Below, piece by piece: positions 49,378 to 59,887 of a DNA stretch of 64,000 nt; within the stretch, counting starts at the first letter, position 1; every line of letters starts with the position of its first letter. A model generated the notes under the pieces. That model ran no database searches. It had not been told where the DNA came from and saw nothing but the letters and a program-made list of their open reading frames with translations. The position numbers were made by a program, and so were the translations under genes. This stretch comes from Escherichia phage SKA64. Where the stretch lies: the sequence record OM362897.1. One strand, written 5' to 3'.

Positions 49378-49568
49378 TGAGTTACGATTTAGATTATTTT
49401 GGTATGCCTTACCTACCAGATGAATTTGAAGGTGAAGAAGAACGTGAATGGGACGATGGGGATATCCGTTGTTGGTCTTGTGGTAAAGATATGTCTTATG
49501 AACAACATATGCACAATGATGGTTTCTGTATACATTGTTATAATGAAATTGATCTGGAGGAAGATTAA
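49378..49568 (+). CDS. Zn-ribbon protein (63 aa)
   Basis: ATG after ATAGGAGAAG; CWSCG...CIHC. Confidence 0.5.
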
Positions 49569-49726
49569 TGGGAAATGGTATCATGATTTGCTATAAAATT
49601 GTGCGTATTGTCGGAGACGAAGTTACCACTCGGTATTTTATGATAGAGTCTCAAGCCGATGAGGTTTACAATGACTGGCTTGAAAAGGTGGATACGATTT
49701 TGTATCTAAAGAAACTTTCCGTTTAG
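49568..49726 (+). CDS. hypothetical protein (52 aa)
   Basis: hand-translated; GGAGGAAG RBS; TAATG overlap. Confidence 0.4.
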   Translation: MGNGIMICYKIVRIVGDEVTTRYFMIESQADEVYNDWLEKVDTILYLKKLSV

Positions 49727-51924: not shown

Positions 51925-51956
51925 AAAGGGAACCTTTGCTGGTTCCCTTTTTTATT
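51925..51956. terminator. bidirectional rho-independent terminator
   Basis: AAAAGGGAACC-TTTGCT-GGTTCCCTTTTTTATT between convergent genes. Confidence 0.7.
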
Positions 51957-54630
51957 AGTCGTAATATTTCAAACCTGTAATGAACTTCGATCCCCAATCC
52001 GCACTTGCGGCGGTGAACGTCAACATCCAAGTTGTAGCTGTACCAGTGAAGACCTCTCGTTGCACAGTACCATCAGTGTGGTAAATGTCCACGCCAGTAT
52101 GTCCATTCTTAGGAATAGTGAAGGTAACAGCACTGGTAGTGTCTCGTGCATAAGAACAAACAAATGGTGTCCCCGCCCAAACTGGATTTGTCATATCGCC
52201 CATCTCAAGCTGTGGAACCCAAGCAATAAGACCTGCCGTACCATCTCCTGCGAAAGTGTCTGATCCACTTGCATTCAAAGCTATAATCTCATAGGTTATA
52301 GATGCTTGTTTGGCAACTGTCACTTTGTGTAGAATTACACGATACCAACCATTCCCCATATCGATTATGTTTGCATCTGCACCTGTAAATGTTCCAGCTA
52401 CAAGATCATAAGTCCCTTCGTTAATCTCATCTCCTGAAGTCAATTTGAGTTTCACTTTAGTGATCCCATCTGGCTTCAAGAATACGGATGCCGCCCAGTG
52501 CTTACCTGCTGTAATATCAGAAGCTGTATTCACTGCTGATAAAATATGTTGTCCTGAAGTTGTAGAAGGTGTTAACTTGTAAGTGTTAGCTGTAGTTCCA
52601 ACCGGAGAGTTGATTGTTGATGCTGTGACTGTCAAGTTCGTCTTCAACCACGGGGAAGCTGTTGTCAAGTTATTGTTGATAAAGATATGTGTACGGTTGG
52701 CTGCTACAACACGTCTACCTTGTGGAGTTGTACCAACATATTCTAAAGGTGCTACGGGAGCAGAACTCTCTGTAGGTACAAGGATATCTCCAGAAGCCCT
52801 GGCATAACGGTTACTCCTGTTGACCTTTACATCCGCCGGAATAGTTTCTTGCGTCAAATCATAGTCCATCACAATCACCACAGCATTCACTGTGAGATAA
52901 GAACTATCTTCGGCAGTTACCACACCTTGATAAGTTGCTCTACAACCGATACGACAACCTCCATCAGCAACCGCTGTAATAACGCCTGTAACGGGGTCAA
53001 CTGTTGCTACCGTAGGGTCATTAGAGAAATACTCAACAACCATACCAGGTAAGCTTGCTGCTCCTGTTGGCGTTATTTCTGCTACCATTGTTTGTGTTGT
53101 TCCTACATCCATCGCAGATAAGCTAGGAGTGTAAACGCTCAATGTTGAAGCATATCCTCCAGAGGTATCTGATAAAGTTGTTCCTTCGGCGTTTAAGGCT
53201 GTCATACCTGCATCAAAACCACCTTCTGCATGGAAAGTCATTAAACCAGTAGATGATATTGTCATGTTTGCAGGGGCAGAAGAAGTGTATTTAATATTGA
53301 AAAGTTTACCTCCTTCTGGGCTAACAGAATGTGTCAACTGTTTAGTTCCACCTACAATACAAATTCCTAAAGAATCTGTAGTTAAGCCAGTTGCCAGAAT
53401 ATCACCCGTAATCACGGAGCTTGCTATTGGTGTGAATTTATTATAGTTTAGACCGCTATTGAACAGATACGAGGCTTTCCCATCTTTCCAAATACCGGAA
53501 TAATACATATCTCCATTATAAACGAAAAAGGTTCCTTGATAACCTAATTGGTTAGTAACATCCATATTCAGCGTATGAACGCTTGTGAGCTTGTTTATAT
53601 CCCAAGAACCCACTCCTTCAGGTTTAACTGGTTTTCCCACTTGGAGTGGATCTCCGCTCGCAGAATCATACCCCAAACCTAAGTTTGCAGTGTAGTTCTT
53701 ACCAATAGCCCACAAGGAATTATTGATCCCAACGAAAAAAGAGTGGCGGCTTGGTGGAAACTTCCATGTTGAGAAACCTGCTGCAAAGGTATCCAGTTTA
53801 GTGTAGGTTGTTTCTGTATTAGACCTAACATATAAGTAGTTTACTGTACCCGTGCCACCGGAGGTATCTCCTACAACTATTGTCTGGGAAACTGTATTGA
53901 TGTAATCTTTGACATACACTGTTTCAGTAGCGGATATCTTAGCATTGACAAAAGCTGTTGTTGTGTTATTATTACCTGCTAAACCTTTACTAGCTCCACA
54001 AACACGCAAGGTTCCCACATTGTTGACATAAGAGCATTGGTTGTAACCTGCATCAAAAGCAACTGCTGCACTTGTTATCTGACGAGGAGTAGAAACTTCG
54101 TTAGTAGTACTTGCACCTAAACTACCTACTGTGTTTTGACCAGATCCGTAAAGAACACCACTATTCATTAACCAGAGAGTGTTGTTATATCCTCCCTTAA
54201 CCTCTTTAAGATTGGCTAAAGAGATAGTCCCTGTTATTACAGATGGAAAGCTGGTCCAAGTAGTTACACATGCGTCCGTACCACCTGCTGCTATAGATCC
54301 TACCAATCCTGCTGTCAATCCTGAATATTGCCATCCCCCACTGTTAGTTTTAATAACAAAACAACGATCTGCGGTAAACACATCCGCTACTACAGTAGAA
54401 GCTAAGTGGAAATTATTGAATCGTGCACTACGAGTTCCATCTGCAATTTCACCAAAAAGGTTTGCGCCTTGAGTAAACAATCTACCATCATTAAGCAAAA
54501 TTGCTAAACTGCTATTAGAATTACCAGCATTATCTGGGTAATCTAAAGTGATTACTTTTTTAACAATACCCGCTGGCAGAGGAACGACACCAGTGCTGGT
54601 CATAATAGTAAATATTGGAATTGGAAACAT
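51955..54630 (-). CDS. tail fibre / receptor-binding protein (891 aa)
   Basis: ORF track; TATGGAGGG RBS; Gly/Thr/Ser-rich, follows fibre genes. Confidence 0.5.
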   Translation of the reverse strand: MFPIPIFTIMTSTGVVPLPAGIVKKVITLDYPDNAGNSNSSLAILLNDGRLFTQGANLFGEIADGTRSARFNNFHLASTVVADVFTADRCFVIKTNSGGWQYSGLTAGLVGSIAAGGTDACVTTWTSFPSVITGTISLANLKEVKGGYNNTLWLMNSGVLYGSGQNTVGSLGASTTNEVSTPRQITSAAVAFDAGYNQCSYVNNVGTLRVCGASKGLAGNNNTTTAFVNAKISATETVYVKDYINTVSQTIVVGDTSGGTGTVNYLYVRSNTETTYTKLDTFAAGFSTWKFPPSRHSFFVGINNSLWAIGKNYTANLGLGYDSASGDPLQVGKPVKPEGVGSWDINKLTSVHTLNMDVTNQLGYQGTFFVYNGDMYYSGIWKDGKASYLFNSGLNYNKFTPIASSVITGDILATGLTTDSLGICIVGGTKQLTHSVSPEGGKLFNIKYTSSAPANMTISSTGLMTFHAEGGFDAGMTALNAEGTTLSDTSGGYASTLSVYTPSLSAMDVGTTQTMVAEITPTGAASLPGMVVEYFSNDPTVATVDPVTGVITAVADGGCRIGCRATYQGVVTAEDSSYLTVNAVVIVMDYDLTQETIPADVKVNRSNRYARASGDILVPTESSAPVAPLEYVGTTPQGRRVVAANRTHIFINNNLTTASPWLKTNLTVTASTINSPVGTTANTYKLTPSTTSGQHILSAVNTASDITAGKHWAASVFLKPDGITKVKLKLTSGDEINEGTYDLVAGTFTGADANIIDMGNGWYRVILHKVTVAKQASITYEIIALNASGSDTFAGDGTAGLIAWVPQLEMGDMTNPVWAGTPFVCSYARDTTSAVTFTIPKNGHTGVDIYHTDGTVQREVFTGTATTWMLTFTAASADWGSKFITGLKYYD

Positions 54631-54640
54631 TTAAACCCTC

Positions 54641-54669
54641 CATAAAAAGAAAGCCCCTTTCGGGGCTTC
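54641..54669 (-). terminator. rho-independent terminator candidate (minus strand)
   Basis: GAAAGCCCC-TTTC-GGGGCTTC followed on minus strand by TTTTTATG. Confidence 0.45.
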
Positions 54670-54671
54670 TG

Positions 54672-56321
54672 TTATCGTGTTACAACAACCATGTCCACGA
54701 TATCACCCACACCAGGATACGTTAATTGCAAAATTGTTACTGCGTTAGCAGTAGTTGCTATTTCTGTATCATTTAGTGCTCCATAAGACGCATCTAGTGT
54801 AACCGTGTGTCCCGTTGTATCTTGAATCAAATAAATCATTGCTGAAAACGCTTTAGGTTTTGTAGAGCCAGTGACACCAGGCCATGCTCCAACTGTCAGA
54901 GCGTCAGTTACTGTAACAACATACATATTGGAAGTTCCAGAAGGAGTCCAAGATGCTCCAGAGTTGGCAGTAGTTGTTTCAAGTTCCATGAAACCTGCTG
55001 TAACTCTAGTTGGTGTTATAGCTTCCGTAGGATCTGATCCTGATATTTCGATCCAGTTTCCATCAGAACGACCATACGTCAAGCCGTCTTGAGGGGCTTC
55101 TGGTATACTAGGAAGAGTTCCTATAAGTGTCCACGTAGAAGAATCTGTTTTCTTAAACACTGCTCCAGTGGTAGTATTGAAGGCGTAATCATTGATAACA
55201 CCGTCTCCTGCGACTGGATTAGTTGTTGCTACAAACCACTGTGCGCCGTCCTTACCGTTGGTCCCATCAGTACCGTTGGTTCCGTTTGTTCCAGGATCAC
55301 CCTTATCTCCTTTATCCCCTTTTTCACCTTTGTCGCCTTTAATACTTCCCATGTCAACAAAAGATGCGGAATTGGTGTCTTGATCGTAGGTATAGATGTA
55401 AAGATTACTAGTGTCTTCAGTTAAGTAAGCATCACCATAGTTATTGTAAACAGGGAGAGCTTCACTGTTCGGAACATGACCTTTAGCTGTAATTGATGTT
55501 CCTCCGAGACTGCCAACATTCATCCATTCCGTAGCATCTTGGACCCAAACATACAAATCATTATTAATTTTATATGCATCACCTACTTCTCCCGTCGGAG
55601 GAAGTTCAGCTTCGCTGTTCAGAACCCCGATAATCTCTAAGCCTGATCCTGTTGCGCCTACTGGTCCTTGTGGACCTAATTCGCCTTGTGGACCTCGCTC
55701 TCCTTGATCACCCTTGTCTCCTTTTGGACCTTTAAGCGAGGCAATAAAATCTACTTCTGTCCCTTCATTACCAGCATCCAGCCAACTTTGATATGCAGAT
55801 TTCCCTTCATCTCCATCTGTTCCATCTAGACCGTCTTTACCTGCCTCACCTTGTGGACCTTGAGGACCAACAATATTACCCATGTTGACCCAAGCTGTCC
55901 CATTAGAGACATAAAGATTACCACTGATAGAATAAGCTTGGCTTACGTTTTCAGAGTTAGGTTGTGGTAAGTTACTTGTAGAAGGCAAATCTCCACGATA
56001 ATCAAAACCGTTGGCGTTAACACCAGGTGCTCCCTGTGGCCCTGTAGGACCAACATCGCCTTTATCACCTTTTATAGAGGTAAGAAAATCATAAACAGAT
56101 CCTGTATTACCATCTGCCAACCATACCTCGTAAGCTGATTTACCTTCTGGTCCAAGAGAAGAAATAAGTTTCCAAACAGAACCATCCCAAGCGTAGATTA
56201 CATCGCCTACGATATAACCATCCCCTGCAACGTTACCTGTAGATGGTAGTTCACTAGTGCTTGCTAATGATCCTTTAATATTGAGTTGAGCACCAGTATC
56301 CCTTTCAAAGAGGCAAGCCAT
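54672..56321 (-). CDS. collagen-like tail fibre protein (C-terminal portion; frame broken at 5' end)
   Basis: Gly-X-Y runs (GDKGDVGPTGPQGAPG, GPQGPQGEAGKDGLDGTDG, GDKGEKGDKGDKGDPGTNG); ATG lies inside a 77-bp tandem repeat. Confidence 0.55.
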   Translation of the reverse strand: MACLFERDTGAQLNIKGSLASTSELPSTGNVAGDGYIVGDVIYAWDGSVWKLISSLGPEGKSAYEVWLADGNTGSVYDFLTSIKGDKGDVGPTGPQGAPGVNANGFDYRGDLPSTSNLPQPNSENVSQAYSISGNLYVSNGTAWVNMGNIVGPQGPQGEAGKDGLDGTDGDEGKSAYQSWLDAGNEGTEVDFIASLKGPKGDKGDQGERGPQGELGPQGPVGATGSGLEIIGVLNSEAELPPTGEVGDAYKINNDLYVWVQDATEWMNVGSLGGTSITAKGHVPNSEALPVYNNYGDAYLTEDTSNLYIYTYDQDTNSASFVDMGSIKGDKGEKGDKGDKGDPGTNGTNGTDGTNGKDGAQWFVATTNPVAGDGVINDYAFNTTTGAVFKKTDSSTWTLIGTLPSIPEAPQDGLTYGRSDGNWIEISGSDPTEAITPTRVTAGFMELETTTANSGASWTPSGTSNMYVVTVTDALTVGAWPGVTGSTKPKAFSAMIYLIQDTTGHTVTLDASYGALNDTEIATTANAVTILQLTYPGVGDIVDMVVVTR

Positions 56322-56454
56322 TGTGCTTCTGTTCCAACAAAACCATTATCAAGTGCGATCTGATAAGCCGATTTACCCCTTTCAAAGAGGCAAGCCATTG
56401 TGCTTCTGTTCCAACAAAACCATTATCAAGTGCGATCTGATAAGCCGATTTACC
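56301..56454. repeat. perfect 77-bp tandem duplication (2 copies)
   Basis: 56301-56377 identical to 56378-56454; 77 is not a multiple of 3. Confidence 0.9.
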
Positions 56455-56772
56455 AGCTTCAGGTATTGTTTCCGACAGATCATCAATTTGTTGCTGCATT
56501 GCCGTAAACTTGGCATTGATAATTGCTATGTCATCAGCGGTCCCAACACTTTGCCATGCAAGGGAAGAAATACCACCTGTGGTGGCTGGCGTAGAGTTTG
56601 CTGGAACTACTTTAGGAAAAGTTCCTTTCCATTGGTAATAATTCCCTTCTGCTGCTAACAGCAAAACTTCACGGGAATTACGTAATGTAAAACCTGCCTC
56701 AAAGCTGCGACGTTTTCGATAAGTAGCTTCTACCAGATCGGCTATCGCACTATTAGGTCTTGTTAAATTCAT
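56305..56772 (-). CDS. tail fibre N-terminal fragment (155 aa), reads into the 77-bp repeat
   Basis: AGGAGAGATAA RBS; ends in GKSAYQIALDNGFVGTEAQWLASLKG motif that recurs in downstream collagen-like ORF, then out-of-frame tail. Confidence 0.45.
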   Translation of the reverse strand: MNLTRPNSAIADLVEATYRKRRSFEAGFTLRNSREVLLLAAEGNYYQWKGTFPKVVPANSTPATTGGISSLAWQSVGTADDIAIINAKFTAMQQQIDDLSETIPEAGKSAYQIALDNGFVGTEAQWLASLKGVNRLIRSHLIMVLLEQKHNGLPL

Positions 56773-56808: not shown

Positions 56809-56827
56809 AGAGGGGAGATTCCCCTCT
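56809..56827 (-). terminator. hairpin, weak terminator candidate
   Basis: AGAGGGGA-GATT-CCCCTCT between tailspike and fibre genes; poor U-tract. Confidence 0.25.
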
Positions 56828-56833
56828 ATTCCA

Positions 56834-59800
56834 TTAGGTTGTTGGCACATCTACTACTGGCGTTGGGCGAATAACCGCAGTATTACCTACAGAAACATTA
56901 CTGGAATCATTAGGTATGGTTTTAATTCTAACTCCAGCACTTGTAGGCGTTACAATTGGATCTGCAATGTCTATTTTAACTGGGTTAGTCCACGTATCAT
57001 TATCTTGATAAGGTGCACGAGTAATAACTGTGTCCAAATCTGCTCCACCTACGCCAGCACCAGGAATACGAATACGTGTCCCTGCTGACAGAGGGTAATG
57101 ATACAACCAAGAAGCATTTGTTGCTGTCCCGTTAGGAGTCAAGTTCTGTGTCAGGAAGGTATCTCCTGCCTGTGTAGCTCGAATACCGAAAGCTGGGATA
57201 TCTGGAATATATGCCCCACTTGTTGTTACAAGGAAGAACGTATTATCCGCCTTGACTATCATATCACCTTTGTCAAACTCTTTCCCTGTTGGGAAATGCA
57301 TTCCATCAATGTTTCGACTAGGATTAGGCTCTAAGTAATAAACTTTGCCCGTTGTCCCTACAATAGCTCCAATACCACCTGCGATATTGGTATACATATT
57401 AGCTTCAACATTACAGTTGACACGATGAATATCCGAGTAACGGCAACGGCTCCACTGTGGACGACCAGTAACCATCGTCTTGCCATCTGGGTAACAGTTT
57501 ACGTTAACCATTTCAAGAACAGATTTTTCTCTACGGAAGAATCCATCATAAAATGTCCCTGGACCAGATTCAGGTTGACCAACACAATCGAAGATATTAC
57601 AGGTGATGTTAGACATTGAAAGCCAAGAAGCTATACCGAACAACTGCAATGCAGCGCAACGAATATTTTCAAAGCTAACTCTGTTTTCATAACCTGGCCC
57701 AGCGGAAACTCCCGCAAAAACACGCCCAGTTTTGGTGTGAATGTTACGAACAGAATAGTTAAAGCATGGGTTTGAAGGTCTACCCTGTGCCGGAACTACC
57801 GGATTACCCTCTTCGTCCAGAACTGCGTTAGTTCCCCACTCCAAATAAATCATACGGATATTACTTGCAAGTGTGCTACCGTCTGTTTTAGGCTCTCCGT
57901 AAACACCGTCAATCGTAAAATCTTTACTTCCATACATTACAACTGCGCCAGTTGCCAAACCTGTCCCAACAGATACGGTCTGGTCTGGATCGCCATGAAT
58001 GTTTTCGATAGAGATATTACGACCAACTTCTACGTGGACAATCTGACGACAACGTTTTGCAAAAACGTTACGAATTGTAATATTCTTACAATATTGATCA
58101 TCAGGGATTCCGTAACCATATGGTCCTTTACCAGCTACACCGATACCGATACCCCAGTTGGACAGAGGAATAGGAGCGTTAGTCCCATCGATATTAGACA
58201 GGTAAATATTCTCAATCACACAACCATCGTCATAATGTTTATTGATGACGTTCAGTTCTATTGCATCACCTTGCATGTCCATGAAGGTAAGGTTACGGAA
58301 GACACCACGTGTTACTGGTTCCCCTGTTCCTTGTTGAAGGATGCCATACAACCCGTTTTTAAAAGTACAGTTATCAATTTCAAAAGTACCTGATATTGGG
58401 TTGCCTTGGAATACCAAGCTACCAACTTGACCTGCGCGAGGAGCACCGTCCCACAAACAATCGAACATGCGCACAGCACCACCCCAATACATAACACGAG
58501 AGTTACGGAAAGTTGTGCCTTCTACTGTAGCATTTTGCACACGATAGTCGCGTTGACCACGGAACACACCCCCACGCAAAGTGATACCTTGAATATCAAA
58601 AGAGCTTGTCGTGAAAGTCATATCGCAACCGTAAGCATCGAGAATCTTGCTTTTCGAAGCTTTTGCTGCTAACAGTGCCGCCTGGAAAGCTGCTTCTGGT
58701 GTGGTATAGGTAGTTGTATTGTTAGCAAATTCTGACAAGTAGACAACATCGAATAAATCGTTGTATGTTCCACCACGAGGGGTTAACAGTCCTTCCGTAT
58801 TAGTTAGAACCCATGCGTTTGGACCTAATCCACCGCTTGTCTCTAATGTGTCAGAGGCCAAAATACTTTTTGGTAAACTTCCAGCCCAACGATAACGACC
58901 AGCACCACGTCCAATCGTCTGATTTTTAGCTGTCAGGGTTACGTTATTACCAAAGCTTGTAGGCAAATGGACAAATTGTCCACGTTCAACAGCCAGTGCG
59001 GAAAGATCTACAGATCCCCCAGAATAAGTCATTACTCCAGAAACAGACAAAGATGTTAAAGTTCCTGTGATGTTAGGAGGTAATGTGTAGGAAGACTGTG
59101 CTACCGGATCATACAGAGCTTTAATCCCTGTTAACGATTGCCCTGCTGTTGCGTAAGCCACCTCATCATCTAACAAACCATATTTACGAGCAATAGTTTG
59201 CAGAGGGACTTTATCCATGCTTTCTGTTAGTTCTTCCGTTTTTGTTTCTAAACTAACAAGACGGTTCTCTAGATTAGGATCTGTATCTGCTGAAGCTACG
59301 ATTTTACCAATATAAGCGAAAAGCTTGTTTGGCAGTCCTGTTGCAGGATCGTGTCCCAAAGGTTCAGATAAGATGATCTTACTATCTTCTATACGGAAAG
59401 CTTCCCCCAGAACCTGAATAACACCATTGATCGTAACAATAGCACTATCAAAGATGTAAGGAGGACTGATTACTGTTTCATAACCAGTTGCACCAGAATA
59501 TACCCAAGGTGTGACTTCTGTTGCCAATTGTTCTGTCTTCAATCCCCACAATACCCAGTTGTTATCTCCTACTGGAGTACCTTGCATAGGGATTGGGTTT
59601 ACCAATGTAGCATTAGGAGCATAATAATAACCGCTCAATACCCCATTCTGAAAATAACGAAGTTGGTTAAAAACTGTTTCGTTTGTGCCTTGCGCCCAAT
59701 CCAATGGGCTTTTAAAGAAAAAGTTGTCAACAAGGGCTTTTCTCAGGGTTGGTATCAACCCTGATTCTGTTTCAATACTCTCTGTAGCACTTCCATTAAT

Positions 59801-59887
59801 AACATCATGGAGTTGGTTAGATGAGAAAATAACCAGGTCTACGCCCTGTTCGAGAGACGTTGCTGGATATGTTGGGAATGTTGCCAT
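56834..59887 (-). CDS. tailspike / tail fibre with beta-helix-like repeats (1017 aa)
   Basis: ORF track; repetitive N/G/T-rich strands (NCTFKNGLYGILQQG, NITIRNVFAKRC) suggestive of parallel beta-helix. Confidence 0.5.
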   Translation of the reverse strand: MATFPTYPATSLEQGVDLVIFSSNQLHDVINGSATESIETESGLIPTLRKALVDNFFFKSPLDWAQGTNETVFNQLRYFQNGVLSGYYYAPNATLVNPIPMQGTPVGDNNWVLWGLKTEQLATEVTPWVYSGATGYETVISPPYIFDSAIVTINGVIQVLGEAFRIEDSKIILSEPLGHDPATGLPNKLFAYIGKIVASADTDPNLENRLVSLETKTEELTESMDKVPLQTIARKYGLLDDEVAYATAGQSLTGIKALYDPVAQSSYTLPPNITGTLTSLSVSGVMTYSGGSVDLSALAVERGQFVHLPTSFGNNVTLTAKNQTIGRGAGRYRWAGSLPKSILASDTLETSGGLGPNAWVLTNTEGLLTPRGGTYNDLFDVVYLSEFANNTTTYTTPEAAFQAALLAAKASKSKILDAYGCDMTFTTSSFDIQGITLRGGVFRGQRDYRVQNATVEGTTFRNSRVMYWGGAVRMFDCLWDGAPRAGQVGSLVFQGNPISGTFEIDNCTFKNGLYGILQQGTGEPVTRGVFRNLTFMDMQGDAIELNVINKHYDDGCVIENIYLSNIDGTNAPIPLSNWGIGIGVAGKGPYGYGIPDDQYCKNITIRNVFAKRCRQIVHVEVGRNISIENIHGDPDQTVSVGTGLATGAVVMYGSKDFTIDGVYGEPKTDGSTLASNIRMIYLEWGTNAVLDEEGNPVVPAQGRPSNPCFNYSVRNIHTKTGRVFAGVSAGPGYENRVSFENIRCAALQLFGIASWLSMSNITCNIFDCVGQPESGPGTFYDGFFRREKSVLEMVNVNCYPDGKTMVTGRPQWSRCRYSDIHRVNCNVEANMYTNIAGGIGAIVGTTGKVYYLEPNPSRNIDGMHFPTGKEFDKGDMIVKADNTFFLVTTSGAYIPDIPAFGIRATQAGDTFLTQNLTPNGTATNASWLYHYPLSAGTRIRIPGAGVGGADLDTVITRAPYQDNDTWTNPVKIDIADPIVTPTSAGVRIKTIPNDSSNVSVGNTAVIRPTPVVDVPTT

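Follow-up and report, generated by a model that had tools for sequence, protein, structure and literature searches.

The 64,000-nucleotide (nt) stretch of Escherichia phage SKA64 analysed here (record OM362897.1, one strand; hereafter the window) carries on its minus strand an open reading frame (ORF) of 549 residues, running from ATG to stop at 54672-56321, for which a collagen-like tail fibre had been proposed. Judged by its sequence, this ORF is a fragment, namely the last 81% (549 of 674 residues, up to the C-terminus) of a fibre gene that is divided in the window by an exact tandem duplication of 77 nt and a shortened run of G. The overall best explanation of the locus, to which we give a probability of about 0.7, is that of an orthologous phage fibre with a segmented, partly collagen-like rod, the gene for which has been split artefactually. 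Collagen-like tail fibres of this kind are already known and already annotated as such in public records. The chief new point is therefore a correction of the gene model, together with a flag on a probable assembly artefact, and little is added as biology.

A fibre gene divided between two reading frames

The whole fibre gene occupies 54672-56772 (minus strand, 2101 nt), a net gain of 76 nt over its relatives, in which it is one ORF of 2025 nt encoding 674 residues. In place of an intact ORF of about 650-680 residues, the window holds one of 155 and one of 549. The first (56305-56772, minus strand) encodes an anchor domain, a coiled coil and the first copy of a module that we name after its GKSAY motif, followed by 23 out-of-frame residues and a stop codon. 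The second starts within the second copy of the duplication, at an ATG outside the true gene frame. The profile of PHROG 15437 ('tail fiber protein', 656 positions) is shared between the two, positions 1-132 matching the upstream ORF (E = 1.7e-82) and positions 131-655 the downstream ORF (1040.7 bits), whereas a single coding sequence is found in OR062524 and, as gp087, in phAPEC8. Removal of one copy of the duplication and addition of one G in silico restored 674 residues with no amino-acid difference from WIL78222.1, the protein of phage vB_EcoM_3A1_SA_NWU. Neither of the exact split products, of 155 and 549 residues, was present in an index of 153 billion genes.

These results bear on how the locus is to be used. 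Any annotation or comparison resting on the 549-residue ORF would miss the virion-attachment domain. If, on the other hand, the window sequence is correct, that ORF lacks its N-terminal anchor, and its product could indeed be missing from the virion, the very outcome that the original prediction had named as its refutation.

The window is assigned by DNA identity to a Phapecoctavirus (Stephanstirmvirinae) genome, that of a phAPEC8-like myovirus. The best genome match is vB_EcoM_3A1_SA_NWU (99.8%), phAPEC8 itself stands at 98.5%, and 58 records of phAPEC8-type phages show at least 95% DNA identity. On the same comparative footing, the fibre gene is assigned as the orthologue of phAPEC8 gp087 (YP_007348547), of phi92 gp151 and of the 'TfpM2' of Stephanstirmvirinae. 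The phi92 gene matches across 99% of the fibre gene at 63.5% DNA identity, and a 681-residue orthologue was given the name TfpM2 in a 2025 paper (PMC12695924). The orthologue is labelled 'lateral tail fiber protein with type I collagen domain' in the GenBank records of the phi92-like phages of the BASEL collection, and 'collagen triple helix repeat protein' in PV191315; the BASEL study itself describes the assignment of genes to fibres as unclear for the phi92-like group (PMC8594841).

The 77-nt duplication and its probable origin

The duplication extends over 56301-56454 (minus strand), with one copy at 56378-56454 and the other at 56301-56377, and covers GKSAY module 1. Tandem Repeats Finder (TRF) reports a period of 77, 2.0 copies and a 100% match, making it the sole strong tandem repeat in the window, and 78 bases match at an offset of 77. 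Read along the gene strand, the window has GCT-GG-[73 nt]-GGGG-[73 nt]-GGG-ATACT, in which the 73-nt core is TAAATC...TTGAAA, and relatives have GCT-GG-[73 nt]-GGGG-ATACT; the run after the second copy is thus GGG here and GGGG in relatives (comparison with OR062524). None of the 60 related phage records that cover the stretch contains the duplication. A 32-mer spanning its junction was absent from IMG/VR, from JGI metagenome contigs and from GTDB genomes, and a 216-nt junction query gave no match in the E. coli genome or plasmid collections. Within IMG/VR, the G3 variant did not occur and the G4 variant occurred once.

We infer that the duplication is probably an assembly artefact, an untrimmed overlap of a de Bruijn contig built with k = 77 and ending at a homopolymer branch point. 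With 150-nt reads, SPAdes by default goes up to k = 77, and the ends of a cyclic contig overlap by one k-mer. On this model, a cyclic k = 77 contig would both begin and end at the vertex G-C-GGG, where C is the 73-nt core (1 + 73 + 3 = 77). That vertex would be the last 77-mer common to the G3 and G4 variants and, as such, the branch vertex of the homopolymer bubble. Leaving through the G3 branch, and later rotated or joined untrimmed, the contig would then read [V1][V1] followed by the G3 branch, V1 being the shared 77-mer. A simple biological duplication was considered and rejected: a duplication of 76 nt yields three G and then four, one of 77 nt yields four and then four, and what is observed is four and then three. 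It follows that a second event is needed under any biological model. The artefact model, by comparison, accounts for the locus in one event and with a repeat length exactly equal to an assembler k, and is favoured on both counts. If it holds, the 549-residue 'gene' is most likely an annotation ghost, and the G3 run may be either a read error or a true frameshift. An artefact of this kind makes false pseudogenes in phage records, and the case merits a check against the reads.

A second homopolymer difference of minus one base was noted within 28 kb. At 49687 the window has four A where vB_EcoM_3A1_SA_NWU and phAPEC8 have five, which shifts the frame of the last 14 codons of a conserved hypothetical ORF (49568-49726, plus strand; 55 residues in relatives). 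This difference suggests homopolymer errors in this assembly.

The alternative that survives best, although we consider it unlikely, takes the duplication and the shorter G run as real mutations. The fibre would then have been knocked out, leaving a 155-residue anchor stub and, at best, an unanchored rod of 549 residues, and the isolate would survive because its adsorption apparatus is multivalent and the remaining fibres and spikes suffice on its propagation host. The split is, after all, present in the sequence as given, and a tandem duplication with GG microhomology at its flanks is mechanistically possible. Phages of this group possess several sets of fibres and spikes, which makes a loss plausibly tolerable (PMC8594841), and 'frame-loss between domains' is documented for prophage collagen-like fibre genes (PMC3368898, Table 2). 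Against these arguments stand the length of exactly 77; the pattern of four and then three G, which amounts to two independent events rather than the single one of a k-mer overlap; the complete identity of the two copies, with no amino-acid decay elsewhere in the gene; and the uniqueness of the duplication among 60 relatives, together with its absence from the five further collections searched.

It is very improbable that the G3/G4 site and the duplication represent a true population polymorphism, in which the fibre would be off in part of the virions and low-level +1 slippage at CUU-UGA would still supply some full-length protein; of the four possible states of copy number and G run, only the single copy with G4 is in frame. 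Least credible of all is a translational +1 frameshift that bridges the split to give a 699-residue fibre with a 25-residue insert: the 5' ORF does stop at CCU CUU UGA A (56293-56313, minus strand), a slippery prfB-like context, and a +1 slip in silico does give one open frame of 699 residues, yet no relative has the site, which the duplication created, no Shine-Dalgarno-like stimulator lies upstream (only AAUGGCUUGCCU), and the insert would consist of 23 out-of-frame residues. CUU-UGA is the slippery context of the +1 frameshift in E. coli prfB. Of the features of a programmed frameshift of that type, the CUU UGA is present here and the Shine-Dalgarno-like element and conservation are absent; its occurrence at the end of the 5' ORF is probably a coincidence.

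Collagen-like runs and the modules between them

The evidence supports the identification of the protein as a collagen-like phage tail fibre with a predicted triple helix. The 549-residue ORF contains four uninterrupted Gly-X-Y runs of 18-33 residues each, 35 triplets together, all on the minus strand: run 1 with six triplets (56016-56069; ORF residues 85-102), run 2 with eight (55797-55868; residues 152-175), run 3 with ten (55641-55730; residues 198-227) and run 4 with 11 (55239-55337; residues 329-361), the last of these being encoded by 9-nt DNA repeats (GDK/GTN units). When triplets in runs of at least four were counted, none of 2000 composition-preserving shuffles reached 35, the best shuffle holding 12 triplets and the longest shuffled run seven. 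A richness in Pro, Lys and Asp had been claimed for the runs and is borne out by the 70 non-Gly positions, which include 14 Asp, 10 Pro and 10 Lys. Position X is occupied chiefly by Asp (9), Pro (8), Thr (5) and Glu (4), position Y chiefly by Lys (7), Gln (7), Asp (5) and Asn (4), and seven KGD/KGE motifs occur in the runs. The Pfam Collagen model (PF01391) scored 47.6 bits against the 549-residue ORF, for a gathering threshold of 27.2, and 46.2 bits against a full-length relative. Across 13 aligned orthologues the Gly columns are invariant, and the gaps, which fall in runs 2, 3 and 4, are multiples of three residues. A trimerization domain is found next to the collagen runs. Given the collagen rise of 0.286 nm per residue, the four triple helices are predicted to be 5.1, 6.9, 8.6 and 9.4 nm long, or about 30 nm when summed.

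The original prediction spoke of a collagen-like triple-helical shaft. Its collagen-like character stands, on the strength of PF01391, Gly conservation, whole-triplet indels and PHROG 15437, but the single shaft does not: the runs are four short segments set between globular nodes. Two kinds of module make up these nodes. The GKSAY module, of 26 residues, occurs three times on the minus strand: module 1 at 56377-56454, in the upstream ORF and within the duplicated stretch (GKSAYQIALDNGFVGTEAQWLASLKG); module 2, GKSAYEVWLADGNTGSVYDFLTSIKG, a predicted two-helix hairpin, at 56067-56144 (ORF residues 60-85); and module 3 at 55728-55805 (ORF residues 173-198). The second kind is a beta module, delimited by internal repeat alignment and by AlphaFold2 (AF2) modelling, with the pattern x(L/I)xIxGxLxSxxxLPxxGxxGDAYxIxxxLYVW...W.N.GxL.G in four copies and a divergent fifth. 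Module 1 of this kind (56145-56303) has about 50 residues and four strands, placed by AF2 within full-length residues 139-180 at a predicted local distance difference test score (pLDDT) above 90; module 2 lies at 55869-56015, modules 3 and 4 at 55338-55640 and the divergent module 5 at 55116-55238, all on the minus strand.

Each Gly-X-Y run had been said to follow a GKSAY...SLKG module. This applies to runs 1 and 3 only, the ORF having just two such modules, whereas what comes before runs 2 and 4 is a beta module of about 50 residues. GKSAY module 3, moreover, abuts the end of run 2, the last Gly of which is the G of GKSAY. Among 120 homologues, 239 of 449 GxSAY modules directly precede a run and 175 directly follow one. 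The association of module and run is thus real, yet it is no rule. A 31-position profile of the GKSAY module found 26,970 cluster representatives (50% identity) at E <= 0.001, and a single protein can hold as many as 38 copies. The module matches unrelated phage tail genes at 77-87% DNA identity, and it can be recognized in DNA even in Acinetobacter, Cellulophaga and Pseudomonas jumbo phages. Searches of the GKSAY and beta modules against the Protein Data Bank (PDB) gave no match, either with a 112-residue segment at E up to 10 or with a 100-sequence profile at E up to 1. The copy of Pfam that was searched held no dedicated model for GKSAY and gave only weak cross-matches to DUF2934, and literature searches with the motif strings returned irrelevant matches only. 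A widespread helical hairpin that interrupts collagen runs, and that lacks a PDB match, may be of interest to structural virologists.

Outside the rod, the upstream ORF encodes an N-terminal attachment domain of the TSP1/gp66 type (Tail_spike_N; 56542-56739, minus strand), supported by both profile and fold (PF18668, 71.8 bits for a cut-off of 25), and a predicted helix, a coiled-coil neck (56467-56532, minus strand; AF2, full-length residues 81-102). Beyond the last beta module lies a foldon-like beta hairpin, IPEAPQDGLTYGRSDGNWIEIS (55041-55115, minus strand), detected by phmmer against the PDB and by AF2. Full-length residues 530-552 match foldon-bearing PDB chains at E of 0.003-0.007 (1v1h, E = 0.003), and 13 of the 22 residues of the motif (59%) are identical to the T4 foldon. 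The protein ends in an all-beta tip of about 110 residues (54675-55004, minus strand), presumably the receptor-binding end, which corresponds to the C-terminus of PHROG 4549 and is similar in sequence to residues 679-790 of 9cuy_g, the C-terminal end of the phiTE tail fibre (E = 4e-8). Of the phiTE fibre, which belongs to the baseplate model, only the N-terminus is resolved in the structure (PMC11972413).

The AF2 model is of the monomer of a near-identical relative (P0001), built from a 114-sequence alignment and given in full-length numbering; its mean pLDDT is 78. The N-domain is modelled as beta structure, each GKSAY module as two short helices (110-116/123-129, 188-194/201-208 and 301-307/314-321), the beta modules as four-stranded units, residues 541-550 as a beta hairpin and residues 565-673 as an all-beta tip with pLDDT of about 90. 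The pLDDT falls below 50 exactly at the four Gly-X-Y runs and exceeds 85 in the modules between them, low values that we attribute to the modelling of a triple helix as a monomer. A separate model of the C-terminal 149 residues reached a pLDDT of 64, worse than the full-length model.

The unstructured runs of the monomer model could also be read to mean that the Gly-X-Y runs are flexible Gly-rich linkers between trimeric beta or helical nodes and form no triple helices, and they are indeed short (6-11 triplets) and poor in Pro (10 among 70 X/Y positions). We regard this as improbable. The Gly periodicity is strict in every orthologue and all indels are of whole triplets, which a mere linker would not need; the Pfam Collagen score is above threshold; the foldon and other trimer nodes flank the runs; and low pLDDT is what a triple helix modelled as a monomer is expected to give. 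In addition, the related collagen-like fibre proteins of E. coli prophages, with collagen domains of 27-322 residues, are trimeric, have the circular dichroism spectra of collagen and show high thermal stability without hydroxyproline (PMC3368898).

More doubtful still is the notion that the protein is a neck whisker or a capsid fibre, akin to T4 fibritin or the Pa223 capsid spike. The foldon motif is as in T4 fibritin, but here it is internal and in fibritin it is C-terminal. The N-domain, furthermore, is the TSP1/gp66 attachment domain of baseplate-attached tailspikes, the gene stands among genes for baseplate, short fibre and spike, and the C-terminal domain matches the phiTE tail fibre, which is part of the baseplate model (PMC11972413).

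Repeat number had been put forward as a likely hotspot for length variation. Between genera, a comparison of repeat numbers agrees, with changes in whole triplets: among the 13 orthologues (58-99% identity), run 1 is constant at six triplets, run 2 has from 5 to 11, run 3 from 8 to 10 and run 4 from fewer than four up to 13. Within the genus the expectation is only weakly realized, the fibre gene being 2025 nt in nearly every Phapecoctavirus record. Period-9 arrays are detected by TRF in run 4 at 55255-55292 and 55296-55341, and ASO2A (MZ726793.1) lacks exactly one 9-nt GTN unit of that run, AACGGAACC. In EP57 (OR544956.1) runs 3 and 4 have been lost through an in-frame deletion of 486 nt, the breakpoints of which show no obvious repeat. 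We distrust this deletion as natural variation: at 130.7 kb the record falls about 20 kb short, and the genes beside the fibre gene are truncated too.

By sequence, profiles and the AF2 model, the intact fibre comprises the N-terminal attachment domain and helical neck, a beads-on-a-string rod, the foldon hairpin and the beta tip of about 110 residues. The rod is built of four short Gly-X-Y segments in alternation with two-helix GKSAY modules, of which there are three, and small beta modules, of which there are five. In a working model of its action, three chains would trimerize, with the foldon, the helical neck and the globular nodes setting the chain register and nucleating the short triple helices. 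The Gly-X-Y helices, low in Pro and with many charged residues, would act as stiff spacers, and the segmented rod, several tens of nm in length, would keep the receptor-binding tip away from the baseplate. The N-terminal TSP-type domain might dock the fibre onto the baseplate or onto the neighbouring spike; the adjacent 1017-residue spike protein has the same domain internally.

Several points weigh against the combined account of an artefactual split and a collagen-like tail fibre. The artefact model presupposes that the contig, once assembled, underwent rotation or concatenation, and genuine tandem duplications do occur in phage tail-fibre genes. The runs are short and Pro-poor, so that their stability would depend on the flanking domains. 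The fibritin model PF07921 (Fibritin_C) did not match the fibre protein at E up to 10, and it is more distant homologues that carry it. Finally, in the 2026 cryo-electron microscopy study of phi92, gp151 is among four candidate fibre proteins that match no density (PMC13450770).

Genomic neighbourhood and likeness to known systems

Comparison with relatives confirms that the fibre gene holds a conserved position between a colanidase-like spike (56834-59887, minus strand; 1017 residues, with Tail_spike_N internal at residues 302-361) and a tail protein of 891 residues, 'TfpM1', which carries RCC1-like repeats and Big_2 domains (51955-54630, minus strand). The genes that come before it encode the baseplate wedge, a short fibre, the assembly protein of that fibre and the colanidase-like spike. 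Spike, fibre and RCC1/Big_2 protein together constitute a three-gene receptor-binding block. Immediately 3' of the fibre stop codon is a strong terminator-like hairpin (54650-54669, minus strand), which the phAPEC8 and ASO2A records mark as a terminator. A further hairpin, GAGGGG-AATCT-CCCCTC, lies between the spike and fibre genes (56810-56826); the closest relative differs there in run length (GAGGGGGGGGG...CCCCCTC), and the ASO2A record has a terminator annotated at this site. On a larger scale, window positions 1-35900 are mosaic with respect to the closest relative, with blocks of 84-98% identity and gaps between them, and positions 35938-64000 are about 99% identical. The 64-kb window yielded no tRNA genes.

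Outside phages, the Gly-X-Y regions recall the streptococcal Scl1/Scl2 and Legionella Lcl adhesins, NCBIfam models of which match at E of 1e-16 to 1e-8. These candidates were rejected, the scores being 34-61 bits for cut-offs of 325-500; the likeness is compositional only, by way of the Gly-X-Y regions, and the window fibre has no LPXTG anchor. Compared with the branched tailspike complexes of CBA120 (TSP1-4) and G7C (gp63.1-gp66), the window protein is without a beta-helix enzymatic body, its distal part being a fibre.

With T4 fibritin (wac) and the engineered (GPP)n-foldon mimics, the fibre shares the 22-residue hairpin IPEAPxDGxxYxRxDGxW, here downstream of the collagen runs. Foldon nucleates collagen peptides, and its position in this protein could register the three chains. 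In contrast to T4 fibritin, the motif is internal, with a tip domain of about 120 residues after it, and the rod is made of collagen and beta modules, not of a coiled coil.

The collagen-like side-tail-fibre proteins EPclA-D of enterohaemorrhagic E. coli prophages likewise have Gly-X-Y domains flanked by trimerizing non-collagenous domains; the lengths of their collagen (Col) domains differ by multiples of three residues, and some copies are split by frame loss (PMC3368898). They have, however, one or two long Col domains of 27-322 residues, accompanied by PfN, PCoil and PfC (PMC3368898), whereas in the window fibre the runs are short and four in number, GKSAY and beta modules are interspersed among them, and the protein also has a TSP-type N-domain and a foldon. 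None of the Pfam models PF08400, PF06820 and PF03406 matched the window fibre.

The closest likeness is to phAPEC8 gp087, WIL78222.1, phi92 gp151 and TfpM2, which occupy the same position in the gene cluster, with DNA identity of 98.5-99.8% within the genus. The phAPEC8-type orthologues are uninterrupted, and the window gene differs from them in its 77-nt duplication and in the change from four G to three.

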